Shown: positions 40,060-58,848, counted from the first letter of the stretch. The stretch is 64,000 bases of DNA from Pseudolabrys sp. (GCA_035701545.1 DASSRW010000077.1:688-64687); one strand, 5' to 3'. Program-made: numbers and translations. Notes: generated by a model from the sequence alone, not told the origin.

Positions 40060-40337
40060 TGTTGTCCTCCCACGCTGGCGCAATATTAGACCCGTATTCC
40101 ATCCGACTTGGCAATGGGCTGAGTGGGCTGAAGCACGGTACCTATTGACCCATCTCGTGCGCCAAGCGCCCCTCGACTCCTGAGGCGGCCGCGCCAAATT
40201 GAAAGTCCGCGGTTGTGTCCCGGGGCCGTGCAACCTCCAGCGAGAGCCGATCAATGCCCGGATGCGCGGGGCGCACCGAGACTTCATCATCGACTGGGCC
40301 GCTCCGTGATCGGTGACCCTTGGGTCAATGGGCGGGA

Positions 40338-40560
40338 CTATCTATTCGCAATTCGAGATGGCGCCCGCCTTTGTAGAGGTACCATTTCGTCCGCGACAAT
40401 TCGGGCGCCTCCTGGCCGCGTGCCGATGGTCAGTTTTCGTTGGTGAAAGGCCGCGAGTTCGGGGCGGTGCGCGACGCTGATCACCGTGGCCGTGGAAAGG
40501 CGGCCCAAAACGAGGCGCATCATGTCAGCTTGCGCCCGCACGTGCAGCGCGGATGTCGCC
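40338..40560 (-). pseudogene. 3' remnant of an ABCD/YddA-like ABC transporter
   Basis: ATSALH...QADMMRLV...ATVISVAHRPELAAFHQRKL resembles the post-Walker-B and H-loop end of ABCD/YddA transporters; no intact upstream frame. Confidence 0.6.
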
Positions 40561-40652
40561 GAGCGGGCAGCCGTTTTTTCGCGCGTCCGCTGTATCGCGA
40601 GCATTGCCGGCATGCGCGTCCGGAACCTCTGCCGCGCGTCACGGAGGCACTC

Positions 40653-40677
40653 GGAACCGTCGCGCCGTTCCCGCGTT
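40653..40677 (+). promoter_or_regulatory. EcfG/sigmaT-type promoter GGAAC-N16-CGTT
   Basis: GGAAC cgtcgcgccgttcccg CGTT, about 100 bp upstream of the methyltransferase ATG. Confidence 0.65.
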
Positions 40678-40773
40678 CGTAAAAGGGATTTTCTGGCAGC
40701 AAGCAGGGCAGGTGATACGCGGCGCTCAACCGTACGGCGTCCCGACACGTGCACAAATCGCGCAAAGCGGACG

Positions 40774-41550
40774 ATGAAAATACTCGATTACGAGACAGAG
40801 CTGAAGATGCTTGAGCAGGCGATCAGGTCGCAGGCGCGTCCTGATGCAATTTTGCAGGTTCTTGAGGCCGGCTGCGGGCGGGAATGGTACTTTGAACTGG
40901 ACGGGGTCTCGTACGAGGTCACCGGAGTTGATCTGGACGCGCACGCGTTGCAATCCCGGCAAAGCCAAAAGCGCGATTTGAATCGTGGAATTGTCGGAGA
41001 TCTGCGTACCGTTAACCTGCCTGCCTCCCATTTTGACGTGATCTATTGCTCGTTCGTGCTCGAGCACATCCAGGGCGCGGCGCTCGCGCTCGACAATTTT
41101 GCAAAATGGCTCAAGCCGGGCGGCTTGCTGATTGTCCGGGTGCCTGATGTCACCGGCGTCCAGACGTTTCTCGCCAGGTCGCTGCCGCGCTGGTGCGCCA
41201 TCGCCTACTATCGCCACGCTTGGGGCATCAAGGATGCGGGAAAACCGGGTTTTGCGCCCTATCCCGCTTTTTACGATGATGTGATCTCGCCCTCCGGCTT
41301 CCACGCGTATTGCAACATCCGAGGCCTGGAAATTGCCGACGAGCTGGGCGTCGGCACATACAGATCGCGCGGGAGAGGGGTCCTTCGGCAGGTCCTGTCC
41401 GCCGCCGCAAGACTCGTCAGCATCGCGAGCGGCGGAAAAATTCACGATCGGTTCGTCGATCGGACATTTGTTGTCCGAAAGCCGGAGACACCGCTTTCTG
41501 CCGGCGCCAGGCGGCCGGAGGCTACAGAGCCACTGCTCGCTGGTGCATGA
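40774..41550 (+). CDS. Class I SAM-dependent methyltransferase
   Basis: VLEAGCG, TGVDLD, FDVIYCSFVLEHI, WLKPGG. Confidence 0.88.
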   Translation: MKILDYETELKMLEQAIRSQARPDAILQVLEAGCGREWYFELDGVSYEVTGVDLDAHALQSRQSQKRDLNRGIVGDLRTVNLPASHFDVIYCSFVLEHIQGAALALDNFAKWLKPGGLLIVRVPDVTGVQTFLARSLPRWCAIAYYRHAWGIKDAGKPGFAPYPAFYDDVISPSGFHAYCNIRGLEIADELGVGTYRSRGRGVLRQVLSAAARLVSIASGGKIHDRFVDRTFVVRKPETPLSAGARRPEATEPLLAGA

Positions 41551-43495
41551 CCGGCTCTCGGGCTGCAGTTTTCTGTCCAGCGAGCCACGCCTGAAGCGTG
41601 AGCACATTCCACAGCGGTGAGCACCATTCCTCTCGCCCTGGCGTTCTTGCCAGATGATCGCGCCAACGCGCGCGGACAAGTTCGGGCTGCAGAATGCCTT
41701 GCGAGCGGATGGAGTTCTCGTCGAGCAGATCGTCCGCCCAACGCCTGAGCGGTCCCCGCAGCCAGGCGGCGAGCGGGGGGACGAAACCCCATTTCGGACG
41801 CTCGAACAGCTTGCGCGGGACGTGACGCGCGAGAACGTCTCGCAGCAGCAATTTGCCTTTGCCGGCGTGCGCATGCTTTGCAGCGGGGAGCGACCACGCG
41901 AACGAAATGACCCTGTGGTCGAGCAACGGCACGCGCGCCTCAAGTCCGGCCGACATTGTGGCGCGATCCACCTTGGTCAGTACGTGGTCGGGGAGATAGG
42001 TCAGAAAATCGATCAGGCGGAGCCGGTCCACGAAATCCGGAACATCGTGGCTGCCCGCCGGATCCCAATGCAAGCCGTACGGCTCACTTGTGCCGAGCAC
42101 GAGTTTTTCGGGTCGCGGCCAATGGCTTTGGAGCTGCCGATAGAGCGCGAGGCCGTCTCCCTCATGCAGGAAGTTCGAAAGCTTGTGCCATTTGTCCTGC
42201 GCCCCGGGCGAGCTTAACGGCAGCAAGGAGCGGGCCATGTCGGAGTGTTCCGTCAATTTCGAGGCATGATCGAGCAGGGCGGCCAATCGCGGCCTGACCG
42301 GCCGCGGAATGCGGCTGAACATTCTCCACAATCGTTTGGCCTGGAAATATCGCGAATAGCCGGCAAACAGCTCATCACCCCCATCGCCCGAAAGGGCGAC
42401 AGTGACGTGCTCCCGCGTGAGCCCGGCCAGAAGGTATGTCGGTATCTGCGAGGGATCGGCAAAGGGCTCGTCGAAATAATAGCTGAGCCTTGGAACGATC
42501 TTCAGCAGATCGCCATCGTCAACATAGAGCTCGGTATGCGAGGTGCCGAGATGCGCGGCGACCTGCTTGGCGTGGACAGCTTCGTTGAAGTCATTGTTGG
42601 CGAAACCGATCGTGAACGTTCGAATCGGCCGCGGGCTGTTCGCCTGCATAAGAGCGACGACGGTCGACGAATCGATTCCGCCTGAAAGAAATGCTCCGAG
42701 CGGCACGTCGGAAATCATGCAGCGGCGCACCGCATCGCCGAGCAATTCCTCGAGCTCGTCGGTAACAGCAGATTTGACCGCCCGTTTCGGTTGCGCGGCG
42801 ATTTCTCGAATGTCCCAATAGCAGCGGTCCGTCACGCCCCCGCCGGCATCGATCGTGATGATGTGACCCGGTTCGAGCTTGTAAACATTCCGGTAAACGC
42901 TGCGCGGCGCCGCGATGTATCCATACCTCATAAACCCCGCGATCGCGTCGCGGTCGAGAGTGCCGTCAAAGCTCGGATGGCTGCGGATCGCTTTCAGTTC
43001 GGACCCGAAAAGGAAAACGGACCCGAAACGCGCCCAGTAGAGCGGCTTTATTCCCGCTCGATCGCGGACCAGCGTGAGGGCACGTCGTTCTTCATCCCAC
43101 AGGGCGAATGCAAACATGCCATTCAAGGCCTCGACACAGCGTTCGATGCCCCAGGCTACGCATCCTTCGACGATGACTTCGGTATCGGAATGACCGCGGA
43201 ATTTGACGCCCTTTGCCTTCAGCGACAGCCCCAGCTCCGTCGCGTTGTACACCTCGCCGTTGTAGGTGATCACAAACCGGCCGTTTGCCGAAGCCATTGG
43301 CTGACGGCCGGCAGGCGACAGATCGATGATTGCGAGGCGCCGATGACCCAGCGCGACGCCGGCCGCCGGATTCGTCCACACGTCTTCCCCGTCAGGCCCC
43401 CGGTGCGCCAAGCTTCTGGTCATCGCGGCTGCCGACGCGGCAAGCGTCTCGTCGTATGCGCCTCGCATGTCGAAGACGCCCGCGATTCCGCACAT
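41522..43495 (-). CDS. asnB: Asparagine synthase (glutamine-hydrolyzing)-type amidotransferase
   Basis: MCGIAG N-terminal Cys, HRGPD, NGEVYN, SDTEV, LSGGIDSS, SGDGGDELFAGY. Confidence 0.93.
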   Translation of the reverse strand: MCGIAGVFDMRGAYDETLAASAAAMTRSLAHRGPDGEDVWTNPAAGVALGHRRLAIIDLSPAGRQPMASANGRFVITYNGEVYNATELGLSLKAKGVKFRGHSDTEVIVEGCVAWGIERCVEALNGMFAFALWDEERRALTLVRDRAGIKPLYWARFGSVFLFGSELKAIRSHPSFDGTLDRDAIAGFMRYGYIAAPRSVYRNVYKLEPGHIITIDAGGGVTDRCYWDIREIAAQPKRAVKSAVTDELEELLGDAVRRCMISDVPLGAFLSGGIDSSTVVALMQANSPRPIRTFTIGFANNDFNEAVHAKQVAAHLGTSHTELYVDDGDLLKIVPRLSYYFDEPFADPSQIPTYLLAGLTREHVTVALSGDGGDELFAGYSRYFQAKRLWRMFSRIPRPVRPRLAALLDHASKLTEHSDMARSLLPLSSPGAQDKWHKLSNFLHEGDGLALYRQLQSHWPRPEKLVLGTSEPYGLHWDPAGSHDVPDFVDRLRLIDFLTYLPDHVLTKVDRATMSAGLEARVPLLDHRVISFAWSLPAAKHAHAGKGKLLLRDVLARHVPRKLFERPKWGFVPPLAAWLRGPLRRWADDLLDENSIRSQGILQPELVRARWRDHLARTPGREEWCSPLWNVLTLQAWLAGQKTAAREPVMHQRAVAL

Positions 43496-43637
43496 TACGA
43501 GCCGCTCCGCGTGCAGGCCTCTGCCTGGCGCATCAACTGGCCAAGGCTCCGCAGAACTCGGCTGCCGTAGCAAAACTCGGACAATCGCTGCAGCATGACG
43601 AATTCACGCGCGATGTGGTCTCTAAAACGCCGTCCCG

Positions 43638-44648
43638 TCACGCGACGGCTTGTTTATCCTGTAGGCCTTGTGCGGGCGGCTCGTTTTGCCGGCGGGCGCG
43701 TTCGAGCTCGATGTTGTTGACGAACCATGCGTAGACGTCCGCGATGCCTTCCCTGAGACGGCGGCGCGGCTGCCACCCGAGCGAGCGCAGAACCTCGGAG
43801 TTCAGCAATTTGCGCGGCGTTCCGTCCGGTCGCGTCGGATCGCGCTCGATGGCGCCCTTGAAGCCCACGACGTCGCAGACAAGTTTCGCAAGATCCAGGA
43901 TCGTTATGTCCTGGCCTGCGCCGATATTGACCGGCTGATCCCCCGAATAGGCTTTGGCGAGGTGCACGATCGCGTCCGCACAATCGTCGACGTGGAGAAA
44001 TTCCCGTCGCGGGGTTCCGCTTCCCCAGATGACGAGCTTGTCGGCGTTCCGGAGCTTTGCATCATGCGCCTTGCGGATGAGAGCCGGCAGCACGTGGCTC
44101 GAGTGAAGGTCGAAATTGTCCCCGGGGCCGTAGAGGTTGGTCGGCATCACGGACATGAAGGCGTCGCCATATTGCTTGCGGTAGGCCTGGACCAGCTTGA
44201 TGCCGGCGATCTTCGCTATCGCGTACCACTCATTGGTCTGTTCGAGCGGACCTGCAAGAAGCGCGTCCTCGGCAATGGGTTGCGGCGCCAATTTTGGATA
44301 GACGCAGGAAGAGCCAAGAAACACCAATCTTTCTGCCCCGACGCGGTGAGCGGCGGCGATCAGATTGGCCTCAATCATCAGATTGTCGTAGAGGAAATCG
44401 ACCGGATACGTCGTATTCGCTGCGATACCGCCGACCTTGGCCGCTGCAATAAACACGACCTGAGGACGGGTTTGAGCCATCCAGCTTTGGGTTTGTTGTT
44501 GCTGCGTCAGATCGACGTGCATGCGATCGGCTGTGACAATCTCGCAGTGCTCCGAGGCGAGCCGGCGCACGAGCGCCGATCCGACCATGCCGCGGTGGCC
44601 GGCGACAAAGACGCGCTTTCCCGCCAGAGAGTAGAAGGTGCCGCTCAT
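43638..44648 (-). CDS. fcl: GDP-L-fucose synthase
   Basis: [45 protein letters not shown]. Confidence 0.95.
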
Positions 44649-45724
44649 TCCGCAGCCTCGCGTAGATGGCCGATGTAGGCGTCGCGCTTCAGCGCGTCGA
44701 GATCGGATTGCAGCATCTCACGCACGAGCTCCGCAAAGCTTGTTGTGTGATGCCAGCCCAAGCGCTGACGCGCCTTTCCGGAATCGCCGACCAGCAAGTC
44801 AACCTCATTCGGCCGAAAGTACCGCGGATCCACCTCGACAAGAATTTCCCCCGTCCTTGCATCGATGCCTTTTTCATCGACTCCTTGGCCCTGCCAGGAA
44901 ATTGAGCGGTTGACCTCTTCGAAGGCAAGCTCGACAAACTCCCGCACCGAGTGACATTCGCCGGTGGATAGCACGTAGTCGTCGGGCTCGTCCTGCTGCA
45001 CGATCCGCCACATGCCTTCGACATAGTCGCGCGCATGCCCCCAGTCGCGCCGCGCGTTCAGGTTGCCGAGATAGAGCTTGCTCTGAAGCCCCAGCTCAAT
45101 CGCCGCAACGGCCCGCGTGATCTTGCGCGTCACGAAGGTCTCGCCGCGGATCGGGCTCTCGTGATTGAAGAGGATGCCGTTCGACGCGTGAATTCCGTAA
45201 GCCTCGCGGTAGTTCACGGTAATCCAGTACGCATATAGCTTGGCGGCGGCGTAGGGACTGCGAGGATAAAACGGCGTGGCCTCGCGCTGCGGCGTTTCCT
45301 GCACGAGGCCGTACAGCTCCGACGTCGATGCCTGGTAGAAGCGCGTTTTCTTTTCCATGCCCAGGATTCGGATCGCCTCGAGCAAGCGGAGCGGTCCTAT
45401 GCCGTCGGCATTGGCCGTGTATTCCGGCGTCTCGAACGACACCTTCACATGGCTTTGTGCGGCAAGATTGTAGATTTCGTCAGGCTGCGTCTGTTGCAGG
45501 ATGCGGATCAGGTTTGTCGAGTCGGTCAGGTCGCCGTAGTGCGTCAGAAATCGCAGGTTTCCCTCGTGAGGATCCTGATAAAGGTGCTCGATACGCGCTG
45601 AATTGAAGGATGACGAACGCCGGCGAAGGCCGTGAACAACGTAGCCCTTTGTCAGCAGGAGCTCGGCCAAATACGCGCCGTCTTGCCCCGTAACGCCGGT
45701 TACCAACGCAACTTTTCGGTTCAT
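44645..45724 (-). CDS. gmd: GDP-mannose 4,6-dehydratase
   Basis: [41 protein letters not shown]. Confidence 0.97.
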
Positions 45725-45947
45725 TGAGACCCCGCGGCCGCAATGGGCAAAAAATCAGCAGCCCCCGGCGACATTCAGTTCTCATAAGCCGGTGGTGGCG
45801 CGTTGGTTCCGTGGGGGGCTTGCCGCGGTCTTTTTTGAGAGCTTTCGAGGATACGCGCCGCGGTTGGCCGGCCGTGGCTTCACGCCGGAGTCGTTGCGGC
45901 AGTATGGCGGTACGGTACCAAGCCCGCGGCAAATATTTCCCGGTCGT

Positions 45948-45972
45948 GGAACTCGCCATTGCCTCGGACGTT
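45948..45972 (+). promoter_or_regulatory. EcfG/sigmaT-type promoter GGAAC-N16-CGTT
   Basis: GGAAC tcgccattgcctcgga CGTT immediately upstream of the GT2-wzx-ATP-grasp operon. Confidence 0.7.
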
Positions 45973-45987
45973 GGTCGGCGAGGGTAA

Positions 45988-47070
45988 TTGCTCGTCGATT
46001 CCTTGCACCGGGCGGCCGTTCGCGAAACTCCGCGGCGCGATCACTGTGGATCAATCGTGCCCATAACATCGGCAGAAGTATCGAATGTCAGCACCGCCTC
46101 CGGCTTCTCCGTTGCGCCTGCCGTCAGCATTGTCACTCCTTTCCACAATCGCGCATCCTTGTTGCCGGCGATCCTGCAAACGCTCGCGCAGCAAACCTTC
46201 CGGGAGTTTGAGCTTATTGTCGTCGACGACGGCTCGGAAGATGATCTGGGTCCGATTGTCGAGAAGGTCCGAACGGCTTTTCCGCTTCGGATGATTCGCC
46301 TCAGCCGCAACCTGGGCGCCGCTTCGGCAAGAAACGTCGGGCTTGAGGCAGCCGAAGGACGCTATGTCGCGTTCCTCGATAGCGATGATAGCTGGCACCC
46401 GGAAAAGCTGCGCCGGCAGTTCGATCACCTGAACCGCGCTTCGGACGGCGGTCGGCTCGTAAGTCTCACACGGCAGCTCGTCGTTGGCGCTCGCACCTAC
46501 GTTACGCCGCGCCGGCTGGCGCGGCGCAACGATTCGGTCGGCCGCTACTTATTCCAATGCGGCGGCGTCATACAGTCCAGCATGATATTTCTGCCTACCG
46601 GTCTCGCGAGGTCGGCGCGGTTCGCCGATGGTGCGCGGGGTCATGACGACTGGTCATTTGCGCTCCGGCTGGAGAACGTCGGCGCCAGATTCGAAATGCT
46701 TCCAGAGGTTCTGACGATATACAATGACGAGCAGGGACGCGCGCGCCGCTCGCCCGAATACTCTGAAAAACGATTTGAGTGGCTGCAGCAATCGCGTCAG
46801 CAGCTCGGCGAGGCGCCGTATCTGGCTGCGCGCGCCGCCTTTGCTTCGCGCATGGGCGCGCGGCGCTCGTTCGACTTGTTCCGCATGATCGTGGTTGCTT
46901 GCGTGCGCGGCGCAATATCGCCGTGGCGGGCCGGTTACTACGCGGCAAGCTTCGCTTTTCCCTCATTCAGGACTGCGTGCGTGCGCGCAAAGGAAATCTG
47001 GCTGAGCCTGCGCTTGCCGCGTGGTCCGGGAAGACCGGGAAAATCCCGATTTCGGCCAATCGTTCGATAG
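45988..47070 (+). CDS. GT2 family glycosyltransferase (start uncertain)
   Basis: VSIVTPFHN, IVVDDGS, ARNVG, FLDSDD. Confidence 0.9.
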   Translation: MLVDSLHRAAVRETPRRDHCGSIVPITSAEVSNVSTASGFSVAPAVSIVTPFHNRASLLPAILQTLAQQTFREFELIVVDDGSEDDLGPIVEKVRTAFPLRMIRLSRNLGAASARNVGLEAAEGRYVAFLDSDDSWHPEKLRRQFDHLNRASDGGRLVSLTRQLVVGARTYVTPRRLARRNDSVGRYLFQCGGVIQSSMIFLPTGLARSARFADGARGHDDWSFALRLENVGARFEMLPEVLTIYNDEQGRARRSPEYSEKRFEWLQQSRQQLGEAPYLAARAAFASRMGARRSFDLFRMIVVACVRGAISPWRAGYYAASFAFPSFRTACVRAKEIWLSLRLPRGPGRPGKSRFRPIVR

Positions 47071-47121
47071 GACGAAGGCGGCTCGAAACATTCCTCCAGC
47101 TCGCAATGAGCGCCCAATCAG

Positions 47122-48576
47122 ATGTCGCTGCAAAGTACCCTGAAATCCTTGATCTGGCCGTTCATCGAAGCGATCAGCGGAATACTCTCCGGTGCGGTCG
47201 CCGTGCTGGTCATCGCTCGAATTATCGGAGCGGAAGCGTTCGGGCTTGGATCGATTGCCCTGGGCGTCGTGCTGATCGCTCAGGTCGGCGTCAACAGCCT
47301 GGTCCACGATGCTTTGGTCCGCAGCGAACATCTCGTTCGCGACGACGTCGACGTCGGATTCACGGCGTCCGTTGTCGCGGCGATCGCTATCGGTCTGATT
47401 GTGGCGTCGGCGGCGCCGGTCGTTGCCTATTTCGTCAAGCACGACGCCATCACGATTCTCGTCTGGGCGTTCACGCCGATTCTCGTCTTCTCGGCCTTGC
47501 CAATGACGATGATCGCGGAGCGGCGGCGGGCGCTGGATTTCAACACCGTCGCGATCCACCAGATTATCGGGAGGAGCGTGGGTGTGGTGCTCGGGGTCGG
47601 AGCGGCACTGGAAGGCGCCGGCGTCTGGAGCCTCGTCATCCAGTACACCTGCGCGAGCATGTACATGGCGATCGCGATGTACGCGCTGGCGCCGCGCTGG
47701 CCGCGCCTGCGTTTCTCATGGGAACGGCTCGCACCCATGCTCAGTTTTTGCTCGCCGATCATTGCAAGCCAGTTGATGATCTACGCGACCAACTGGTTCT
47801 TTCTCTTCACGATGGGCCGCTGGCACGGGCTCGGCGCGGCCGGGCACTGGAGCGTCGCCATGCGGCTTGCGGACGGCCTGTTCGGCGGCATCATGCAGGC
47901 GGCCTACCAGGTGGCGTTGGCAAGTCTTGCGCTGCATCAGGCCGCGCGCGAGCGGTTGAGAGACGCGCTGGTGAAGGGACAGGCGCTGTCCGGATTGGTG
48001 GCGATTCCCTTGCTGGTGGCGCTGGCCGCCGCGGCCGAGCCGCTTTTGCAGTTGCTGCTGGGGCCAGGCTGGGGTCCGGCGGGACAGCTGGCCTTGGGCC
48101 CTTTGGTCGGGTCGTTTCTCTTTCTGCGGCAGATCCTGCCGAGCACCGCGCTGCGCGTGATCGGCATCTCGGCCGTCTCGCTGGCTGCGACGCTTGCCAA
48201 CGCGGCGACCGCGTGCGCCGGCCTTGTCCTGTTTGGCCATTACTCCCCACTGGCGATAAGCGCGGTATACGCGCTCTCGATCCTGCCCGGCTACTCGCTG
48301 ATCTATTTCGTGGCCGCGCGCAAATTTTCTCTGCCGGTCGAGCGCGGGCTTGCCGCGCTCGGACGCGATCTCGCTTTGGCGATGATGGCGTTTGCGTTGG
48401 CCCGAAGCATCACCGGCCAGCTTCACAGCCCGTCATTGCTGCTGAAAGTCGCGGTCGCCGGCTCGACGGCGTTTCTGGTTGCGGCAGTGTTGCTGGCGCT
48501 GTCGCAGCGAAAGTTCTTTCAGGCCGTGCTTGTTGCCGAATTGAAGGGCGCTGGCGCTGAAAACAAAATCCGATGA
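47122..48576 (+). CDS. Wzx-type oligosaccharide flippase
   Basis: About 12-14 hydrophobic segments; GVWSLVIQ, LLGPGW; polysaccharide context. Confidence 0.88.
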   Translation: MSLQSTLKSLIWPFIEAISGILSGAVAVLVIARIIGAEAFGLGSIALGVVLIAQVGVNSLVHDALVRSEHLVRDDVDVGFTASVVAAIAIGLIVASAAPVVAYFVKHDAITILVWAFTPILVFSALPMTMIAERRRALDFNTVAIHQIIGRSVGVVLGVGAALEGAGVWSLVIQYTCASMYMAIAMYALAPRWPRLRFSWERLAPMLSFCSPIIASQLMIYATNWFFLFTMGRWHGLGAAGHWSVAMRLADGLFGGIMQAAYQVALASLALHQAARERLRDALVKGQALSGLVAIPLLVALAAAAEPLLQLLLGPGWGPAGQLALGPLVGSFLFLRQILPSTALRVIGISAVSLAATLANAATACAGLVLFGHYSPLAISAVYALSILPGYSLIYFVAARKFSLPVERGLAALGRDLALAMMAFALARSITGQLHSPSLLLKVAVAGSTAFLVAAVLLALSQRKFFQAVLVAELKGAGAENKIR

Positions 48577-49646
48577 CCGGGACTGTGGCCGGAGGGATAG
48601 GGACGATGACATCAGGAAGCAAAGCGCCCGATTCACCGTCGCGAACGTCGCTCCGGAGCGACGTGTTTTCCTTTTTGTACAAGACACTGCCCTATGCGCC
48701 GTCCGTCGATCGCCTTCTGCTGCTGGCGCGCTTTGTTCGCGCACACAATCGCATTCCACGCAATCCGGCCCGGACCGGCGCCACCTTCAACGATCTGATC
48801 TTCGGCCGGTTGGTCAAGGCAGACTGGAACAATCTCGAGCGATTTTGCATCGACAAGGAGTACGTCAAGTTTTTCGCGCAGGGCGTCTGTCCCGATGTAA
48901 GAACGGCGCGGACAGTCGATGTCATTCGTTTCGACCGTGAAGCGGGGTTCGAGGCCGCCGAATCCGTCCTGCTCGCCCGTGCCGGGACCGATCTCGTTGC
49001 GAAACCCACCCACGGATCGGGAATGGTCCTTTTCCTCCGCAAGACTCCGTTGCGCGAGGAGATACATCGTTTCTGTGTGGCAGCCTCGGAGTCGTATTAT
49101 CGGCGGTCACGCGAAAATCTGTATGCAGGACTGGAACGCAAAATCCTTCTTGAAGAGGACCTTTCCGAGGACGAGCAGCCGCCTGTCGACTACAAGTTTT
49201 TCTGCGCCCGCGGAAAGGTATTGTTTGGCCAGATCGACGTCGACCGTTTCGCCCACCACCAGCGGGCTCTTGTGACCCCTGCTTTCGAGCGGATGGACGT
49301 GCGCTACATGCACGACACGCCGACCCGGCCGTTGGGCCGGCCCGCCAACTTTGAGCAGATGGTCGACGCGGCAGCAAAGCTCTCCAGGTTCTTTTCCTTT
49401 GTGCGAGTCGACCTCTATTCCGTTCGCGGCGCAGTCTTTCTCGGCGAGCTCACGCTCGCGCCCGAAGGCGGCGCGGGATCGCTGTCCGACGAAAGCTTCG
49501 GTGCGCGCGTGATGGCGGACATACGGAAGGCCAACGAGGGCGGCAGACCGGCCTTCGCCGGAACGGCGTTTCCGGAAGACAAGCCGCTGGTCTCCGGAGG
49601 TGAGCGGCGGAAGCGGCGGGGGCGCCTTGCAGGAGGACAGCTTTGA
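48573..49646 (+). CDS. TupA-like ATP-grasp protein
   Basis: IDKEYVK, VAKPTHGSG, LLEEDL...PVDYKFFC..GK...QIDVDRF, FVRVDLY, GELTLAP.GG. Confidence 0.8.
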   Translation: MTGTVAGGIGTMTSGSKAPDSPSRTSLRSDVFSFLYKTLPYAPSVDRLLLLARFVRAHNRIPRNPARTGATFNDLIFGRLVKADWNNLERFCIDKEYVKFFAQGVCPDVRTARTVDVIRFDREAGFEAAESVLLARAGTDLVAKPTHGSGMVLFLRKTPLREEIHRFCVAASESYYRRSRENLYAGLERKILLEEDLSEDEQPPVDYKFFCARGKVLFGQIDVDRFAHHQRALVTPAFERMDVRYMHDTPTRPLGRPANFEQMVDAAAKLSRFFSFVRVDLYSVRGAVFLGELTLAPEGGAGSLSDESFGARVMADIRKANEGGRPAFAGTAFPEDKPLVSGGERRKRRGRLAGGQL

Positions 49647-51079
49647 AGACCACACGGTTTGACGCGCTGAGCCGCCGCTCGCTGCTGTGCGGCGGGCTCT
49701 CCCTGCTCGGCGGCCGCGTATTTGCCCAAGCGGGAGTGCTGCCACAGCGCGCCGCCGGCCGCAGATTTTATGTGGCGCCGACCGGCAGCGACACGAACCG
49801 CGGCTCGGAGACGTCACCGTTCCGAACGATCAGCGGCGCCTTGAGGACGATTTCCGACCTGCATGCGAATGACACGTTGGTCGTGATGCCCGGCGTTTAC
49901 GCTGAGCAGGTCGTGATTGCGAGGGGTGGCGATGAGAGCGGGTATCTGACGCTGCAATCGCAAGTGCCGCACGCCGCCAGGATTCGCTCTCCGAAGAACA
50001 CCTACAGCGCAGTCAATATCGTCAGCAACTACGTGGCGCTTGAGGGCTTCGACGTGCAAGCCGGCGGAAGCGGCCACGGCATCGAGGCGACCTTTCTCGA
50101 GGGAAACCCCGCCAATAACGGGCCTCACCACATCAAGATCGTCAACAACGTTTCGCATGACAATGCCGGCAGCGGAATAGGAGTGGCGTATGGAGATTTT
50201 TACACGATCGACGGAAACGTCTGCTGCCGCAATTGCGCAACGAACCGCTATCAGGGCAGCGGCATTTCAATTTATGCCGCGCGCGCGGTGGCTGGCGCAA
50301 CGGACGCGTTCCGCAATTTCGTCCGCCGGAACATCTGCTTCGACAACATGATCGTTGATCTGCCCGGCAGTCCCGAGCCGCCGCATTCGGACGGCAACGG
50401 CATCATCATCGACGATCTGGCCAACTCGCAAAGTCACTATCCGGCAGGGGCATACCCTTTCGAGACGCTGGTCGAGAACAACGTGTCGTTTCGCAATGGC
50501 GGCAGGGGCGTGCATGTGTATCTGAGCGACAACGTCACGGTTCTGAACAACACCAGCTATCACAACAACCGCGACAAGCTTAATCCGGGCACCTGGCGCG
50601 GAGAACTCAGCAATGTCGCCTCCAGCAACACGATATGGGCGAACAATATCGGCGTGGCCGATCCGGCGGTGAACCGGAACAACGTGGCAATCAACGAGGC
50701 TTCGACGGAGGAGCGGCGGAGCAGCAATGTCGCCTGGCACAGCAATCTGACTTTCAATGGTCGGCCGGGCGATGCCTCCGTTGATCTCGGCAAGCCTCAC
50801 GGCGTTCTCTCCTCAGGCAAGTTCGGCGACAATCTTCTCGGCGTCGATCCGCTGTTCGTCGGCGGCAACGTGCAAGAGGCGGCAGACCTGCGGCTTCGCG
50901 CCGGCTCGCCGGCGGTGGATGCCGGGACCATTTCCTATGGCGCTTCCGAGACGGATGTCGCGGGACATGCCCGGGTCAGGGGCGGATCGATCGATCTTGG
51001 CGCGTTCGAATATGGCGATGAGGAAGAAAGCCGGGATGATGCCTTGGGAAGCGGCGCTCGGGGGAGCACCGTCCGGTGA
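49643..51079 (+). CDS. Tat-exported right-handed parallel beta-helix protein (polysaccharide lyase/epimerase-like fold)
   Basis: LSRRSLL signal; FYVAPTGSD..GS..SPFRTI; repeated N/G/I-rich coils (HSDGNGIIID); C-terminal LRAGSPAVDAG...IDLGAFEY. Confidence 0.8.
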   Translation: MKTTRFDALSRRSLLCGGLSLLGGRVFAQAGVLPQRAAGRRFYVAPTGSDTNRGSETSPFRTISGALRTISDLHANDTLVVMPGVYAEQVVIARGGDESGYLTLQSQVPHAARIRSPKNTYSAVNIVSNYVALEGFDVQAGGSGHGIEATFLEGNPANNGPHHIKIVNNVSHDNAGSGIGVAYGDFYTIDGNVCCRNCATNRYQGSGISIYAARAVAGATDAFRNFVRRNICFDNMIVDLPGSPEPPHSDGNGIIIDDLANSQSHYPAGAYPFETLVENNVSFRNGGRGVHVYLSDNVTVLNNTSYHNNRDKLNPGTWRGELSNVASSNTIWANNIGVADPAVNRNNVAINEASTEERRSSNVAWHSNLTFNGRPGDASVDLGKPHGVLSSGKFGDNLLGVDPLFVGGNVQEAADLRLRAGSPAVDAGTISYGASETDVAGHARVRGGSIDLGAFEYGDEEESRDDALGSGARGSTVR

Positions 51080-51151
51080 GGCACAAGGGCAGGGTCATTC
51101 TTGCGCCTTGTTGCGGCGCTCAAATTGGCGGTGCTTGTAGCGGAGAAGAGC

Positions 51152-52303
51152 ATGGGCAAGAACAGGCTTAGAGCCCTGCCGGGCAAGCTGGACGCCAACG
51201 GCACGCAACGCGAGAATGTGAGCTTCTCGGACGCGAGCGGCCTCATCTGGCAGAGCGCCTCATTCGTCTTTTGCCGGCGCAATGCGAAGCTCATCTCGGT
51301 TTTTGCGATCATCGGGCTGGCGATTGGTATTTCCTATCTCTCGCTTGCGCCCGCGATGTTCACGGCCAAAGCGCAGTTGTTGATCGAGCCGAAGCTGCCG
51401 CAATTTTTGCAGGAGAACGCCAGCGACTCGAGTCACGTCCTCGACAGCTCGCAACTGGAAAGTCATATGGTGCTTCTGCAGTCCGAACGCGTCGCGACGG
51501 CGGTGATCGAAAAACTGAACCTGTTGCACGACCCTGAATTTCAGGAGCAATCCGGCTGGGCCGAACGAGGATTGAGCGAGCTCGGCCTGGTGAAGGACGG
51601 AAAGCTTCCGGACAGCCTCGACTTTCTTTCTCCGCTGGTCGCGCGCGGAGACGGAAAGGACCCGATGCAGACGGCGGTGAAGCGATTTGCGGACCACTTG
51701 CGCGTCCGCCGGATCGGTATTTCGTACGCAGTCGAGGTGGCGTTTTCTTCACGCGATGCCGCAAAGGCGGCGAGGATCGCAAATGCGACAACCGACGCTT
51801 ATTTGCAGACGCTGATCGACTTCCGCGCCGATGCGGCGCGCGTCGCCAGTCAGTGGCTGGAAGACCGGCTTGCCCAGCTCAGGGTCCAGATGAATGCTGC
51901 AAACATCCGGGCGCAGCGATTCAAGGCAGCGCAGGATTACCGCATTGTGAAGCCGTCGGACCCTCCGAAGCCCGTCACGGATGGCATCGACAAAACAACC
52001 GCATCACCAGGCGGCGGCCAGACGACGCTCGACGAGCTTGAGCTGACGGCGGACACCTATCGGAAAGTGTATCAGAATTTCTTCAGCGCCTTCACCGAGG
52101 CCGTGCAGCGGGAATCCTATCCGGTTTCCAATGTGCAGGTAGTCTCAAAGGCCGTTGCGCCCGATCACAAGAGCTCGCCGAAGACGCTGATCGTTCTTGC
52201 TCTGGCGCTGGCCGTCGGCGCCTTCATCGGCGCCTGCTTCGCGCTGCTTCGCGACGTCTTTTCGCATCGCCCTCCGGATTACCCCTTGCCGGAAAAGACC
52301 TGA
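51152..52303 (+). CDS. Polysaccharide co-polymerase (Wzz/GumC/ExoP N-terminal type) without kinase domain
   Basis: Two TM segments flanking a periplasmic coiled coil; Pro-rich APDHKSSPK before TM2; no Walker A. Confidence 0.85.
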   Translation: MGKNRLRALPGKLDANGTQRENVSFSDASGLIWQSASFVFCRRNAKLISVFAIIGLAIGISYLSLAPAMFTAKAQLLIEPKLPQFLQENASDSSHVLDSSQLESHMVLLQSERVATAVIEKLNLLHDPEFQEQSGWAERGLSELGLVKDGKLPDSLDFLSPLVARGDGKDPMQTAVKRFADHLRVRRIGISYAVEVAFSSRDAAKAARIANATTDAYLQTLIDFRADAARVASQWLEDRLAQLRVQMNAANIRAQRFKAAQDYRIVKPSDPPKPVTDGIDKTTASPGGGQTTLDELELTADTYRKVYQNFFSAFTEAVQRESYPVSNVQVVSKAVAPDHKSSPKTLIVLALALAVGAFIGACFALLRDVFSHRPPDYPLPEKT

Positions 52304-52314
52304 GAGGCCAATTC

Positions 52315-53400
52315 GTGCCCCGGCCGAAGCGTATTTGGGTGGCAACCCCCTATGGCAAAGATGGAATGGGAGGCATCGACCGGCTGAATGATGCGATCTT
52401 TGATGCCGTCGGCCGCCGTCCTCAGCTGGGTTTTCAATGCGTTCGGCTGGTGACCCGCGGGAAGCGAGGATTGCTCTCGGCCCAAGGCGTGTTCGCATCT
52501 GCGCTGCTGCGATTCTGCATGGCGGCGTGGAGAGGCGACGTCGATTTGCTGCATATCCATCTTTCGAACGGCGGCAGCAGCTATCGCAAGGCGGTGCTCG
52601 GCAAATTCGCGAGGGCGCTCCGAATCCCTTACGTGGTGCACTTGCATGGCATCCAGTTTCGGGAATTCTGGGCGAGCACGAACCCGCTTCTCCAGGTGGA
52701 GCTGGAGCGGCTGCACGAGGGTAGCGCGCGCATTGTTGTACTGGGCAAGTACTGGGCCGAGGTGATCCTCGAGCGTTTACCGGATCTTGCCGCCCGGATT
52801 GTCGTGCTTCCCAATGCGACCGCGCTCACCCCGCAGGTTTGCCGCAGCAAGCGTGAGCAAGGCAAGGTACAGATCACCTTTCTGGGAAAGCTGGGTACGA
52901 GGAAGGGCGTACCCGATCTGATCAGGGCACTGAGCCGCCTGGCGAATCTGCCGGATTGGTCGGCGACGATTGCGGGCGACGGCGAGATCGCGGAGGCCAA
53001 AGCGCAGGCGCAACAACTCGGCATTGCCGCGCGCGTCGAAATTCCCGGCTGGCTCGACGTTGCAGCCCGCGAAAAGTTGCTGGCAAGAACGGACATACTC
53101 GTTCTGCCGTCTTATGCGGAAAATCTGCCCATGGTGATTGTCGAGGCGTTCGCGTGCGGTCTGGCGGTGATTGCGACTCCGGTCGGCGCGATACCCGAAG
53201 TGATCGTGGATGGCGACACCGGGCTCCTGGTGCAGCCGGGAGACGACGCCGCGCTGGCGAGCGCGATCGAGCGGCTCGTGAAGGAGCCCGGTCTGCGCAG
53301 CTTGTTGGGAGAGGGCGCGCGGCGGATGTATCGGGAGCGCTTCGAATTCGATCGTTATATCGGGCAGCTGGCCGAAATCTGGCGTCAGGCGACTAACTGA
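52315..53400 (+). CDS. GT4 family glycosyltransferase
   Basis: RKGV, LPSYAENLPMVIVEA (EX7E), GDTGLLVQPGD. Confidence 0.92.
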   Translation: MPRPKRIWVATPYGKDGMGGIDRLNDAIFDAVGRRPQLGFQCVRLVTRGKRGLLSAQGVFASALLRFCMAAWRGDVDLLHIHLSNGGSSYRKAVLGKFARALRIPYVVHLHGIQFREFWASTNPLLQVELERLHEGSARIVVLGKYWAEVILERLPDLAARIVVLPNATALTPQVCRSKREQGKVQITFLGKLGTRKGVPDLIRALSRLANLPDWSATIAGDGEIAEAKAQAQQLGIAARVEIPGWLDVAAREKLLARTDILVLPSYAENLPMVIVEAFACGLAVIATPVGAIPEVIVDGDTGLLVQPGDDAALASAIERLVKEPGLRSLLGEGARRMYRERFEFDRYIGQLAEIWRQATN

Positions 53401-54688
53401 AGGGTGTTGTCTGGCTCGGCTGCTTTGCAAGCACGAGCATTCCAGCGAGCGCCGCAGCGAGAAGCGCGTTCAAGTTGTTCGGCAGAATGATTGTCGTTTC
53501 GACGAAGTTGTGAATGACGATGATCGATATCACGGCTAGCGGAAAAACGGCGGGACGCGGTTCATGTACGTGCATCGTGAGCATGTGGCGGGCCGCGCAA
53601 AAGATCAGCCATGCAACCACTGCAACGCAAACCGCCAGGCCGGCGTAGCCGAGATAGATGAACGTCTCGAGATAGCCGTTGTGGGCGCTTCCGAAGCTCG
53701 TCTGCAGCAGCGCCGACACTTCGCTGTCGAGCGTGAAGAAGCCCGTAAAGTAACCGCTGCCGAACAGCGACGGCGTTTTTTCAACGATCTGGAGGATGAA
53801 ATACCACAGAAGCGTTCGTCCCGTCAGGTCGCTGTCTCGGTCGAGAAGGTGCAAAGCCCAAGCCGCAATCTCGTCCCGCAGCAGCAGCAGCACGACGGCC
53901 GCAAGGGCGACAATCAGCGCAAAAATTCCCTTGTGGGCGGGAGACTGCCGGCAAAACGCGAGAAGCACCAGGCTGAGCGCCGTCATTACCGCTGCGATGA
54001 CAAATCCGGTGCTCGAACGCGCCCCCACGAGGCATGCAACAGCCGCAAGCAGTGCAACGCCGCGCGTCGTCAAATGGCTGAAACAGTCGCGGCCAAAGAC
54101 CAGGACAACCGCGAACGCGACCCCTGCCCACAGGCCGAGCGTGTTGCGGTGGCCAAAAATCCCTCGCCAGGCGCCCGCATGGATGGCCTGGATTGCATCG
54201 CCCGGCTGATGCACGCCATACAACGGATAAACGACAACCATCGCGCAACTGAGCACGCAGGCCAGACTCAGGCCGCGCCCAATCAGCGCGATCAGGTCGC
54301 GTCTGGCGTACGCGGCGCCGAGCGACAAACCGAACACTGTCGTTCCGGCAAAAGCGCCGGCCCGGCGCAGCGAGAGCAAGGGGTCGGGCGACCAGACGGT
54401 CGACAGCATGGCAAGCAACGGCAACAGGAGAATCGGCCAGGCGCGCGTCAGGACGGGCGTCATGTTCCTGTTGCCAAGCAGAAGCAGGCTTCCGGAGCAG
54501 TAGAAAAAGGCGAGAATGGTTTGCGAGAGGGCGGAGCCGGCGCCGGGCTCCGATGCGAGTCTAAGATCCGCGCCTGATGTCACCAACACGAAGCCGCCGC
54601 CGACGAACAGAAAGCCTGTCAGGTAAAACGCGTAGAGCAGCCTGTTCAGAGGTACAGCCGACGACCTGAGGTCTATCGCAACGGTCAT
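53393..54688 (-). CDS. Wzy polymerase / O-antigen ligase family (ExoQ-like)
   Basis: Multi-TM; WRGIFGHRNTLG, DLTGRTLLW, SAHNGYLE. Confidence 0.85.
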   Translation of the reverse strand: MTVAIDLRSSAVPLNRLLYAFYLTGFLFVGGGFVLVTSGADLRLASEPGAGSALSQTILAFFYCSGSLLLLGNRNMTPVLTRAWPILLLPLLAMLSTVWSPDPLLSLRRAGAFAGTTVFGLSLGAAYARRDLIALIGRGLSLACVLSCAMVVVYPLYGVHQPGDAIQAIHAGAWRGIFGHRNTLGLWAGVAFAVVLVFGRDCFSHLTTRGVALLAAVACLVGARSSTGFVIAAVMTALSLVLLAFCRQSPAHKGIFALIVALAAVVLLLLRDEIAAWALHLLDRDSDLTGRTLLWYFILQIVEKTPSLFGSGYFTGFFTLDSEVSALLQTSFGSAHNGYLETFIYLGYAGLAVCVAVVAWLIFCAARHMLTMHVHEPRPAVFPLAVISIIVIHNFVETTIILPNNLNALLAAALAGMLVLAKQPSQTTPFS

Positions 54689-54701
54689 GACCAAACGCCG
54701 G

Positions 54702-55544
54702 TTACGGCTGCCGGCCGAGCGACCGCGGCAGGCGCAGATCCAGCAGGCTGAGAAAAACGAAGCGTGGGGCCAAATAGAGGTAGCGCCACCAAAGCCTGCG
54801 CGGCTCGGAAAGCAGGCGATACAGCCACTCCAGTCCGTTTGACCGCATCCATGCCGGCGCGCGCTTCAGGCGCCCGCTATGGAAATCAAAGGCCGCCCCG
54901 ACACCGATTGCGATGAGATTGTTGAGCTTCCCGATATTCTGCAGCATCCAGATTTCTTGTTTGGGGCAACCGAGACCAACCCACAAAATATCCGGTGCTG
55001 TCTCGTTGATCCGATCGACTGCTGCGGTCGCTTCCTGCTCGGACAGTTCACGAAAAGGCGGGCAATCGACGCCCACGATGAGCAGGCCGGGATACAACGC
55101 CCTGGCCCTTCGTGCGAGCTCATCCGCCACTCCCTGGGATCCGCCGTAGAAGTAGTGACGCCACCCCATCTTTGCCGAATGCTCCAGCAGGCGGAGCATC
55201 AGGTCAGGGCCGCAGACGCGTTCAATCTGCCTTTCTCCACGCAGCCTCGACAGCCAGACGACCGGCATGCCGTCGGGAAGGATCATCGCTGCATGGCGCA
55301 GCGCCTTCCTGTGCAACGGATCGTCGCGCGCGCGCATGATGCTGTGGACGTCGGCAGCGCAGATGTAACGGCTCGCTTTTGCTTCGATCCACCGGGCGAC
55401 GGTATCGATCACCTGGTCCATGTTGAGTGCGGCCACGCCAACGCCGAGTATTCGGACCGTTCGCGGAGCAGTCGATTGCGGATGCGGCTGATGAACCACC
55501 TCTTCGCAAGATACGTCTGGATTGCGTAAAAGCATAATAAGCAA
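54702..55544 (-). CDS. WecB/TagA/CpsF (GT26) glycosyltransferase
   Basis: PDGMPV, RVCGPDL, WVGLGCPKQE, GVGAAFDF, GLEWLYRL..EPRRL. Confidence 0.92.
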   Translation of the reverse strand: MLIMLLRNPDVSCEEVVHQPHPQSTAPRTVRILGVGVAALNMDQVIDTVARWIEAKASRYICAADVHSIMRARDDPLHRKALRHAAMILPDGMPVVWLSRLRGERQIERVCGPDLMLRLLEHSAKMGWRHYFYGGSQGVADELARRARALYPGLLIVGVDCPPFRELSEQEATAAVDRINETAPDILWVGLGCPKQEIWMLQNIGKLNNLIAIGVGAAFDFHSGRLKRAPAWMRSNGLEWLYRLLSEPRRLWWRYLYLAPRFVFLSLLDLRLPRSLGRQP

Positions 55545-55565
55545 CTTCTACTGAAATGGTCGCGT

Positions 55566-56939
55566 CTATCTGGATTGCGCGTCTCGGGGTTGAAGCGGCT
55601 GCGCCTGCAAGGAGGCCTCGGAGGTTGCTTCGGCCGGCTGGCTGCCGCAGCATTTGACCTTGATCGTGTCGCCGGGCTGCACGAGCGTCGTTTCCGTTGC
55701 GGGAAATTCCGCGAAGTTCTTTCCGGCGCGCCGGATGATCGAAAAGCTCAGCTGCGCGCTCACCCAAATCGGTGCAATCTTGTCGGATTCGGCGACCAGG
55801 CTCCGGTCGGTGGCCATTTTGACTCCGATCTGCTCGAGCCTTGCGCGCGTCGAATTCAGGTCGCCGACGACGCTTTCCCTGAACTTCGATCGAAGCTCCA
55901 TGAGCGACGTGTCGGCCTTGCTCAGCTCTTCGATCGTCCCCTTGAGCCGGCTTTTCAGGCGGAGCGATTCGCCTTCCGTGGTCGCCGCTTCCCGTTGTGC
56001 GGTCAAATAGCGCTGCTCGGTGACGAGCCCGCTTTTCTGCTTCTTGTCGACTTCCTGCTTGTCCTGTTGCGCCAGCGCGAGCAGCTTGTCCTGCTGCTGG
56101 ATTTGCGCCTTGATTGAATTGACCTCACCCGTCAAATAATTCTTCACTTGCTGAAACGATTGCGCGCTGATTTCCAGCGCATGCTTGCGCGCTTTAAACA
56201 ACAAGCGCTCCTGCGCCATCGCTGAGGTCGCCTGCTTGTCCCCGTGCTCGGCCAAAGACGATGGAAATTTGATGTCGTCTTGGCCGTTCAGCTCGGCGTC
56301 CAGCCGGGCCGCTCGTGCCAGCAGGGCCGTTCGCTCGCCGGCAAGCTCGTTCAATTCGCCGGTCCAGCCGACAATCTCGCGCTCGATTTGATGGACATCG
56401 ATTGCATGACTACGCGGCAGCCCGCCGGCTATCGCCATCGCTTGAATGACGGTCATCCCGGGCCGAAACGAATATTCGCCGGAGGTCGCCACATCGCCCA
56501 CGATATAGAAGGGCCGGAATTTGATGATCTCGACCGAAGCATCCGGCCTTTGAGCGATGTTGATCCGCTCCTGCAGCCGCTCGGAAATCAGTCGGGCCAG
56601 TTCGCCCGTGGTGGCATCGGCGGCCTGGACCTCGCCGACGAGCGGCAGGGATATTTTCCCGGCGGCATCGATCGTATAGTCGCCGTTGACGGATTGCCAT
56701 TCGAACACCTCGGCCTGGGACGGTCGCCACGCCACGATCTTGAGGCGAATCTGATCAAACGGACCGAGGTGGTATTCGGAACGCGCAGACGCGGTCTTGT
56801 CAGCCTGCTCTTGAATTTGCGCGAAGCCGGGCTGGAGGGGGCAAAGTGTCACGGCAAGCGCGAACGTCGTCGCCAGCGCGAGAAGCTGGCCGCGACGCTG
56901 GCAGCGCGAGGGAGCGAGTTCGGACATACGAGTGCTCAT
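55566..56939 (-). CDS. Polysaccharide export OPX protein (ExoF-like with coiled-coil extension)
   Basis: EYHLGPFDQIRL, GKISLPLVGEV, RPFYIVGDV..GEY.FRPGMTV.QA.A.AGG, VQPGDTIKV; start at MSTRMSE. Confidence 0.85.
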   Translation of the reverse strand: MSTRMSELAPSRCQRRGQLLALATTFALAVTLCPLQPGFAQIQEQADKTASARSEYHLGPFDQIRLKIVAWRPSQAEVFEWQSVNGDYTIDAAGKISLPLVGEVQAADATTGELARLISERLQERINIAQRPDASVEIIKFRPFYIVGDVATSGEYSFRPGMTVIQAMAIAGGLPRSHAIDVHQIEREIVGWTGELNELAGERTALLARAARLDAELNGQDDIKFPSSLAEHGDKQATSAMAQERLLFKARKHALEISAQSFQQVKNYLTGEVNSIKAQIQQQDKLLALAQQDKQEVDKKQKSGLVTEQRYLTAQREAATTEGESLRLKSRLKGTIEELSKADTSLMELRSKFRESVVGDLNSTRARLEQIGVKMATDRSLVAESDKIAPIWVSAQLSFSIIRRAGKNFAEFPATETTLVQPGDTIKVKCCGSQPAEATSEASLQAQPLQPRDAQSR

Positions 56940-57187
56940 AGGCGCGTCCCCAAAGTCTCCGCAGATACGAAAAAAACGTGTGACTCCCGGTGGATCGGCG
57001 GCAGCATTGGGTCTTGCTGTTCGGGAGAGGCAGCAGGATACCGGCGCCCCCGAACAGTTCGAATTAAGAACTAATTGGCTAATTCGGGGTTCCGATCCGT
57101 AAACGCATTTCCGGGCGCGCAACGTCGCAACGCGAACAAGCCGGCATCCCGTTCCGGTCAGGCGACGCGATTTCAGCGCCGGGCCGT

Positions 57188-57589
57188 TCAGTCCAGGTAC
57201 TGCGCCGGCTTTGTCTCCAGCTGAAATATCCAAAGCAGCAGCGTCGCGGCGGCTGCAATCGCGGCGATCAGAAAGAATCCGACCAGCCGGCCAAACTCTT
57301 GATAGACAAACCCGTCGTAAGCGTGCTGACCGATGCTGCCAGGCCGGACATTGCGCGGACCGCGCCGCGGGCGAAATTGAAACGCCCGTTGCCGGTCGTC
57401 AGGTCGGTTATCACGAGCACGGTCAACACGGTCACGATCGCGCTGGTCACGTCAGCGCGAGGACCAGGATGATTGCGGAGCCGCCAATCAGCACGATGCC
57501 GAGTGCGACCAGGGCGCGCTTGCCGACGCGACGCCCTGGAAGCGCGGGGAGATCGCGCCGACAACACCCGCTTTGTTTGCGAACTGCAT
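57188..57589 (-). pseudogene. Decayed MFS transporter (internal deletion plus frameshift)
   Basis: Fragments KRALVALGIVLIGGSAIILVLA, TSAIVTVLTVLVITDLTTGNGRFNFARGAV and, after a frameshift near 57312, GFVYQEFGRLVGFFLIAAIAAAATLLLWIFQLETKP read as MFS TM segments with the typical terminal ETK motif. Confidence 0.65.
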
Positions 57590-58792: not shown

Positions 58793-58848
58793 ACCGGCTG
58801 CAACCCGGCAGCGCGTATCGCGGTTCCTCTTTCCGGCCGGCGCGAGTT

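Follow-up and report, generated by a model that had tools for sequence, protein, structure and literature searches.

A fucose heteropolysaccharide locus of Pseudolabrys sp. that pairs a TupA-like ATP-grasp protein with an AsnB-type amidotransferase and a Tat-signal beta-helix protein

The stretch of DNA analyzed here (the window, 64,000 nt of contig C77) comes from a metagenome-assembled genome (MAG) of Pseudolabrys sp., 3.7 Mb in 283 contigs with a G+C content of ~62%. Between 40.7 and 57.0 kb, the window carries a cluster of polysaccharide genes. On balance, and with moderate confidence, we explain it best as a cassette for a Wzx/Wzy-dependent fucose heteropolysaccharide, either an exopolysaccharide (EPS) or a capsule, which would be exported by an outer-membrane polysaccharide export (OPX) protein and for which an amide-decoration mechanism is inferred. 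All families in the locus are known, and it belongs, as yet uncharacterized, to the exopolysaccharide loci of the Wzx/Wzy class. Its novelty lies in a conserved combination, met so far only in uncultured Hyphomicrobiales, in which a stand-alone TupA-like ligase is paired with a WbpS-like amidotransferase and with a beta-helix enzyme exported via the twin-arginine translocation (Tat) pathway.

Gene content and the proposed assembly pathway

Thirteen genes in four transcription units were found in the region, each with strong family support from the hidden Markov models (HMMs) of Pfam or NCBIfam (Table 1). A gene for a class I S-adenosylmethionine (SAM) methyltransferase stands alone as unit 1 on the plus strand. 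Unit 2, on the minus strand, comprises gmd, fcl and the gene for an AsnB-type amidotransferase. Unit 3 (plus strand) consists of the genes for a GT2-family glycosyltransferase, the flippase Wzx, a TupA-like ATP-grasp protein, the beta-helix protein, a polysaccharide co-polymerase (PCP) and a GT4-family glycosyltransferase, and unit 4 (minus strand) of those for the OPX protein, a GT26-family glycosyltransferase and Wzy. An earlier sequence-only reading of the window had named these 13 genes; all of them are present, and the families assigned to them hold on the HMM scores. The limits that it had drawn, 40774 and 56939, are both start codons, and the best ones for the outermost genes (the ATGs of the methyltransferase and OPX genes, respectively). 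The operons that it had described are supported by 4-base stop/start overlaps, which join gmd to fcl, wzx to the ATP-grasp gene and the latter to the beta-helix gene. The methyltransferase gene and asnB are convergent and share 29 bp at their 3′ ends (41522–41550); the called genes of the counterpart locus in another Pseudolabrys sp. MAG (L004) overlap by 83 bp. Unrelated genes flank the locus, those of a branched-chain amino acid ABC transporter at one end and one of the beta-lactamase family at the other. The Rfam scan of positions 40000–59500 revealed no element.

Table 1. Genes of the polysaccharide locus and candidate EcfG promoters (positions in the window).
Feature	Coordinates	Strand	Support and remarks
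SAM-dependent methyltransferase, class I, 258 aa	40774..41550	+	PF08241 7.5e-15, PF13489
AsnB-type glutamine amidotransferase, WbpS/eps_aminotran_1 kind, 657 aa	41522..43495	-	PF00733 7e-111; TIGR03108 580.6 bits
GDP-L-fucose synthase, fcl	43638..44648	-	NF047922 510.9 bits, cut-off 500
GDP-mannose 4,6-dehydratase, gmd	44645..45724	-	TIGR01472 600.9 bits, cut-off 415
GT2 glycosyltransferase	45988..47070	+	PF00535 2.8e-29; candidate starts 45988, 46003 or 46057
Wzx, MOP-family flippase	47122..48576	+	PF13440 9.7e-45
TupA-like ATP-grasp amidoligase (predicted), stand-alone, 357 aa	48573..49646	+	PF14305 80.1 bits, cut-off 25
Beta-helix protein, right-handed, Tat signal, 478 aa	49643..51079	+	Structural model and twin-arginine motif; PF22842 from precomputed record
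Polysaccharide co-polymerase, PCP (Wzz + GNVR)	51101..52303	+	PF13807, PF02706; TIGR01005, N-terminal part; probable start ATG 51152
GT4 glycosyltransferase	52315..53400	+	PF00534 5e-37
Wzy-type polymerase, Wzy_C domain	53393..54688	-	PF04932 4.4e-12
GT26 (WecG/TagA/CpsF) glycosyltransferase	54702..55535	-	PF03808 2.6e-66; TIGR00696 173.8 bits, cut-off 69
OPX, outer-membrane polysaccharide export protein	55566..56939	-	PF02563, PF10531
Candidate EcfG promoter of methyltransferase gene, GGAAC-N16-CGTT	40653..40677	+	97 nt upstream of ATG; same position in Pseudolabrys L004
Candidate EcfG promoter (EcfG-type motif) of GT2-wzx-grasp-helix-PCP-GT4 operon	45948..45972	+	Position conserved in L004 and L005
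Candidate EcfG promoter of OPX gene, GGAAC-N18-CGTT, weaker	57129..57155	-	190 nt upstream of ATG; no exact L004 counterpart

Both gmd and fcl score above their equivalog cut-offs, and the GDP-L-fucose branch predicted from them is complete. Wzx, Wzy, the PCP and the OPX protein are encoded together, and the GT26 enzyme is likely the second-sugar transferase. Two genes for priming transferases of the Bac_transf kind lie elsewhere in the genome, on contigs C215 and C74, and the product of the former is 51% identical to the priming enzyme that the related cassettes of the Aestuariivirga type (see below) encode themselves. The OPX protein joins its Poly_export and SLBB domains to an HlyD-like helical hairpin region (TIGR01843 over residues 195–378), and its orthologues bear PF25994 (HH_AprE), a domain layout that differs from that of classical Wza.

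An O-antigen of lipopolysaccharide would be another product of such genes, the Wzy_C protein then being a ligase or an O-antigen polymerase and the PCP a Wzz-type chain-length regulator. The PCP, in which no kinase domain was detected with the Pfam and NCBIfam profiles, suits that role, and PF04932 also covers the WaaL ligases. O-antigen loci, however, do not need an OPX exporter, and all full copies of the cassette encode one (none is seen on the short fragment L012), which makes an O-antigen highly improbable.

In the pathway that we propose for the fucose heteropolysaccharide, an unlinked priming transferase (the C215 and C74 proteins being the candidates) would start, on undecaprenyl phosphate, a repeat unit that comprises some four sugars. 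GT26 would add the second sugar, and GT4 and GT2 the rest, including L-fucose. Prior to flipping, AsnB would turn the carboxylate of a uronic acid into a primary amide and/or the ATP-grasp enzyme would ligate an amine or an amino acid to such a carboxylate. Since both enzymes need ATP and lack a signal peptide, they would have to act before Wzx does. The methyltransferase may add a methyl group in some strains. Wzx would then flip the unit, Wzy and the PCP would polymerize it, and the OPX protein would export the polymer, which the Tat-exported beta-helix enzyme may cleave or remodel in the periplasm.

The two amide-forming enzymes and their possible targets

AsnB starts with MCGI at the ATG at 43495, with Cys2 as the nucleophile, and has the PP-loop SGGIDS at residue 271; with both kept, its catalytic machinery looks intact. 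The best NCBIfam match of the protein is TIGR03108 (eps_aminotran_1), the family of WbpS, WbqG and PGN_1234, which yield uronamides (PMC7468200). Besides the family match, AsnB has in common with these enzymes the Cys2 nucleophile, the PP-loop and a place in a glycan locus with a flippase pathway (PMC7468200).

The ATP-grasp gene is the sole PF14305 gene of the genome. The match spans profile positions 57–232 only, the N-terminal ~138 residues being divergent, and all of the 26 homologues compared keep the nucleotide/Mg residues K144, R278, D280 and E292. The AlphaFold model (pLDDT 85.5) found its structural matches among carboxylate-amine ligases, namely LysX/ArgX, Ddl, RimK, DcsG and PsnB; the PDB sequence search with the ATP-grasp profile returned no match. 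Altogether, the ATP-grasp protein and AsnB look functional, and amide formation on a glycan carboxylate is predicted.

The background that the sequence-only reading had cited, on uronic acid amidation by AsnB-type enzymes and on TupA-like ATP-grasp proteins in amide-linked decoration, is borne out by the literature. Cj1438C, a TupA-like domain, forms an amide with ethanolamine or serinol at the C6 carboxylate of the glucuronic acid of the Campylobacter capsule (PMC11800379). The C-terminal domain of Cj1438 from Campylobacter jejuni HS:2 and the window protein both match PF14305 and are both encoded in surface-polysaccharide loci. The Campylobacter domain is fused to a GT2, whereas the window protein stands alone and belongs to a system that exports via Wzx/Wzy. 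To our knowledge, the biochemistry of enzymes installing amino acid amides has been worked out in one system only, that of the Campylobacter Cj1438C domain.

Several results weigh against the proposed mechanism. AsnB reached 580.6 bits and thus stays below the TIGR03108 equivalog cut-off of 816.9, and, in contrast to WbpS, WbqG and PGN_1234, it has no linked uronic acid dehydrogenase: none of the eight cassette copies has a PF03721-type gene at a distance of up to 10 kb. The second AsnB locus of the same genome, on contig C24, has a TviB-like dehydrogenase of its own, and its AsnB paralogue shares 50% identity with the AsnB of the window, versus 43–46% for the AsnBs of the Aestuariivirga type. 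In the AsnB tree (window, L004, L006, L007, L010–L015, the own-genome paralogues L077 and L079, L021 and L046), eight of the ten inner branches are unsupported and L079, L021 and L046 sit on very long branches; hence orthology of the AsnBs across the two cassette types is not demonstrated by the tree. No priming phosphoglycosyltransferase (Bac_transf) was found in the window or in the Pseudolabrys locus L004. The locus also has no amine-making genes comparable to those accompanying Cj1438, nor genes for dephosphorylating an amine donor. Finally, the TM-scores of the beta-helix model are as low as 0.25–0.46 and give a fold class and no enzyme class, so that the fold of this protein is clear but not its reaction.

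Uronic acid-forming dehydrogenase activity may come from elsewhere, as a Ugd-like gene lies outside the cassette in all six cassette genomes checked, which is permissive evidence only because Ugd is common. The C24 region mentioned above (C24:17700–24200, L074 and L077) is a second polysaccharide locus with genes for a TviB-like UDP-GlcNAc 6-dehydrogenase, a protein like epimerases of the short-chain dehydrogenase/reductase family and the AsnB paralogue. Its gene content suggests a pathway of the WbpO/WbpP/WbpS type that would yield an N-acetyl-hexosaminuronic acid in amidated form.

The two enzymes could also act in sequence on one residue, with the ATP-grasp enzyme attaching an amino acid and AsnB amidating the free carboxylate of the latter, to give a neutral uronoyl-amino acid amide. 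Both enzymes are encoded in every cassette copy and together again in a locus of Mesorhizobium ciceri, and the AsnB-type enzymes AsnB1 and LtsA amidate carboxylates of meso-diaminopimelate in peptidoglycan, which would be a precedent for such a reaction. We nevertheless consider sequential action unlikely, as the tree does not demonstrate orthology of AsnB across cassette types and the WbpS-type enzymes that have been characterized have the uronic acid itself as their target (PMC7468200).

The Mesorhizobium locus (strain LMG 14989, a cultured organism; L015, 6145–20172) encodes an ATP-grasp protein 36% and an AsnB 45% identical to those of the window. It comprises genes for a type I secretion system, this TupA-like ATP-grasp protein, an RTX protein, a GT4, an uncharacterized protein of 419 aa, AsnB and a PCP of 752 aa. 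It thereby offers a handle on the ATP-grasp/AsnB pairing in a cultured strain.

Another possibility, to which we give little weight, is that the polymer carries one amide type only, the ATP-grasp enzyme using an amine other than an amino acid (ethanolamine, serinol or a polyamine) or a carboxylate other than that of a uronic acid. The cassette contains no uronic acid gene, and the substrate of the sole TupA-like domain with characterized biochemistry is ethanolamine or serinol rather than an amino acid (PMC11800379). However, the aminotransferase and phosphatase genes that supply and process such amines in Campylobacter are absent from the cassette.

It is very unlikely that the ATP-grasp enzyme and/or AsnB act on a protein or a small molecule, or that AsnB makes asparagine, and that they are mere neighbors of the polysaccharide genes. 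A precedent for such a target is found in Klebsiella, where CfmP, a TupA-like ATP-grasp protein, was linked to modification of the fimbrial FimA, independently of surface polysaccharides (PMC13419641). By contrast, 4-base overlaps tie the ATP-grasp gene of the window to wzx and to the beta-helix gene, the order of these three genes is kept in all cassette copies, and asnB heads the single long operon of the Aestuariivirga-type loci.

With the amidated fucose heteropolysaccharide as the preferred product, the occurrence of primary-amide and amino acid decorations together, which the sequence-only reading had put forward, is a reasonable hypothesis and not a result. The polyamide that it had offered as a variant found no backing, and neither did a product resembling teichuronopeptide, as nothing in the locus supports the synthesis of a peptide polymer.

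The Tat-signal beta-helix protein and related systems

The N-terminus of the beta-helix protein combines a twin-arginine motif (SRRSLL), a hydrophobic stretch and an AxA site (FAQA), as seen in SRRSLLCGGLSLLGGRVFAQA; the start sequence of the protein is ..LSRRSLLCGGLSLLGGRVFAQA. The twin-arginine motif was present in 28 of 35 homologues. The model folds into a right-handed parallel beta-helix (pLDDT 85.9), and its best PDB matches are the GH136 lacto-N-biosidases, the PL9 pectate/rhamnogalacturonan lyases, the PL6 alginate/chondroitin lyases and the mannuronan epimerase AlgE4; the PL9, PL6 and AlgE4 enzymes act mostly on uronate polymers. The fold matches include 1ru4, 5olq and 7v6i, and the N-terminal cap motif aligns with 3vst and 5olq. 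PF22842 (Pel9A-like) stands on the precomputed record, and the direct Pfam scan gave DUF1565 only, at 23 bits. A cluster of H248, D250, D257 and D258 is invariant, and no register with Pel9A was obtained. The protein is a probable periplasmic polysaccharide-active enzyme. Its identity with WcaM was rejected, since the WcaM model TIGR04004 gave no match to it; the sole weak match of this model in the genome lies elsewhere.

A relative of this protein is encoded on plasmid pRL9 of Rhizobium johnstonii 3841. RL_RS26565, a beta-helix/RTX protein of 745 aa, is 45% identical to the window protein over 87% of the latter, and it is probably pRL90140, judged by size and position only; pRL90140 is secreted by the type I system PrsDE (PMC2275737). 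The export routes differ, via C-terminal RTX repeats in R. johnstonii and via the Tat signal in the window protein. Beta-helix proteins of this family thus occur with polysaccharide loci under both routes of export, which points to an extracytoplasmic enzyme acting on the polymer. Like the window locus, that of pRL9 encodes a GT26 (39% identity between the two) along with a GT2, a GT4 and a Wzy-like protein, but it differs by its UDP-glucuronate decarboxylase and by the absence of ATP-grasp, AsnB and fucose genes. This uncharacterized polysaccharide locus (L083, 140091–155266 of pRL9) encodes two adjacent large beta-helix proteins, one of them with RTX repeats, and also a priming transferase.

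Among the characterized systems, the polysaccharide of Vibrio cholerae (VPS) has glycine amide-linked to a uronic acid, and its locus encodes the beta-helix lyase RbmB, which is likely periplasmic (PMC12993940). VPS is likewise a Wzx/Wzy-like EPS; its likeness to the predicted polymer is an analogy only, sequence relation being no part of the comparison, and VPS contains no fucose. Colanic acid of Escherichia coli resembles the predicted polymer as a fucose-containing Wzx/Wzy EPS made with gmd and fcl. It is stress-induced, and its locus encodes WcaM, a Tat-dependent beta-helix protein. The colanic acid locus, however, has neither ATP-grasp nor AsnB genes, the window cassette lacks acetyl- and pyruvyl-transferases, and, as stated above, the WcaM model does not match the window beta-helix. 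The sequence-only reading had suggested an undescribed glycopolymer and a comparison with characterized clusters. In the collections and the literature searched, no characterized locus with the same gene set was found, and the literature search for a cluster combining ATP-grasp, asparagine synthase and fucose genes found none, in keeping with that suggestion.

Distribution, candidate promoters and significance

The cassette was searched for in one genome per species with the ATP-grasp protein as the seed. The gene set (asnB, GT26, PCP, GT4, GT2, wzx, ATP-grasp, beta-helix, wzy, OPX and gmd) recurs in seven other species-level genomes, all of them MAGs, which makes eight cassette copies together with the window; the exception is the short L012 fragment, which shows no wzy, OPX or gmd. 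The L004 locus of the Pseudolabrys sp. MAG is collinear with the window, with 64–90% amino acid identity (gmd 90%). In Aestuariivirga spp., a Hyphomicrobiales MAG and an alphaproteobacterial MAG, the genes form a single long operon whose products are 29–62% identical to those of the window. The order in this Aestuariivirga type is asnB-GT26-PCP-GT4-(methyltransferase)-GT2-wzx-grasp-helix-wzy, after which come the genes for a VasI-like protein, the OPX protein and a small priming transferase, then gmd and usually fcl, with manC in one locus. The small VasI-like gene (PF11319) between wzy and OPX (13573–14223 in L006, 13654–14259 in L007) has no counterpart in the window. Two cassette loci showed no fcl within 10 kb. 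The order wzx-grasp-helix is invariant in the cassette copies, and the junction of the ATP-grasp and beta-helix genes is overlapping or tight.

The O-methylation that the sequence-only reading had expected stands in part. The methyltransferase gene is present in the window, and its orthologues are 72% (L004) and 56–59% (L006 and L012) identical, but it is absent from L007, L010, L011 and L013. With the gene in only four of the eight cassette genomes, methylation would be optional.

No close homologue of the cassette ATP-grasp protein was found in 200 genomes of the same family (62 genera, including four congeners at 99% completeness); two distant matches of 32–36% identity were the only ones in this sample. 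The cassette thus ranks as a rare accessory locus, with different flanks in the window and in the Pseudolabrys MAG. The DNA of the four congeners is only ~75% identical and the flanks lie on different contigs, and no insertion boundary could be defined. Protein searches revealed ~45 further clusters of ATP-grasp homologues (at least 46% identity) and ~65 of beta-helix homologues (at least 50%), nearly all of them metagenomic. The cassette was found in no cultured organism, its hosts being a few uncultured soil and water bacteria. The search of plasmids for near-identical DNA retrieved gmd only (76–80%) and no known replicon with the locus, and the plasmid protein search with the ATP-grasp sequence gave distant matches of at most 34% identity, none of them a cassette.

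Transcription of the locus is probably under the control of EcfG, the sigma factor of the general stress response, as suggested by the upstream sequences. With the EcfG pattern GGAAC-N16/17-CGTT (consensus from PMC6599016), the GGAAC-N16-CGTT form occurred three times in the window versus 0.58 expected, and none of 100 shuffles reached three. The positions of two of these motifs, those of the methyltransferase gene and the GT2 operon, are conserved in Pseudolabrys while the spacers differ. The motif was also found upstream of asnB in two Aestuariivirga-type loci. Genome-wide, 66 motifs were counted versus 8–65 (median 29) for composition-matched control patterns. At least three motifs within 20 kb occurred in three regions of the genome only: the window locus, contig C110 and the phyR/ecfG locus on C34, where the PhyR gene scored above the cut-off and a sigma-like gene adjoins it (C34:26393–28051). 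The scan for a sigma-70 consensus promoter found none in the intergenic regions and gave fewer matches than the shuffles. Control of EPS and glycosyltransferase genes by EcfG has a precedent in Sphingomonas melonis (PMC6599016). A further EcfG-type motif (59128–59152) lies upstream of the neighboring beta-lactamase-family gene (57674–58792).

A bolder version of the proposed mechanism holds that the uronic acid carboxylates are fully neutralized in a stress-induced fucose EPS, the ATP-grasp enzyme adding an amino acid and AsnB amidating that amino acid or a second carboxylate. Processing of the polymer would fall to a dedicated beta-helix enzyme, exported via Tat, that recognizes the modification as RbmB recognizes glycine on VPS. 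We regard this version as speculative and rather improbable; if it were true, the full-neutralization decoration pattern would be one not known from any exopolysaccharide.

Since the cassette was met only in uncultured organisms and its parts are all of known kinds, the gain in knowledge would be incremental unless the structure of the polymer is unusual. Amide decorations alter the charge of surface polysaccharides and, with it, hydration, ion binding, and phage and immune recognition. The compact cassette may be a handy toolkit for work on such amide chemistry, as well as on the reason why soil Hyphomicrobiales would switch it on under general stress.

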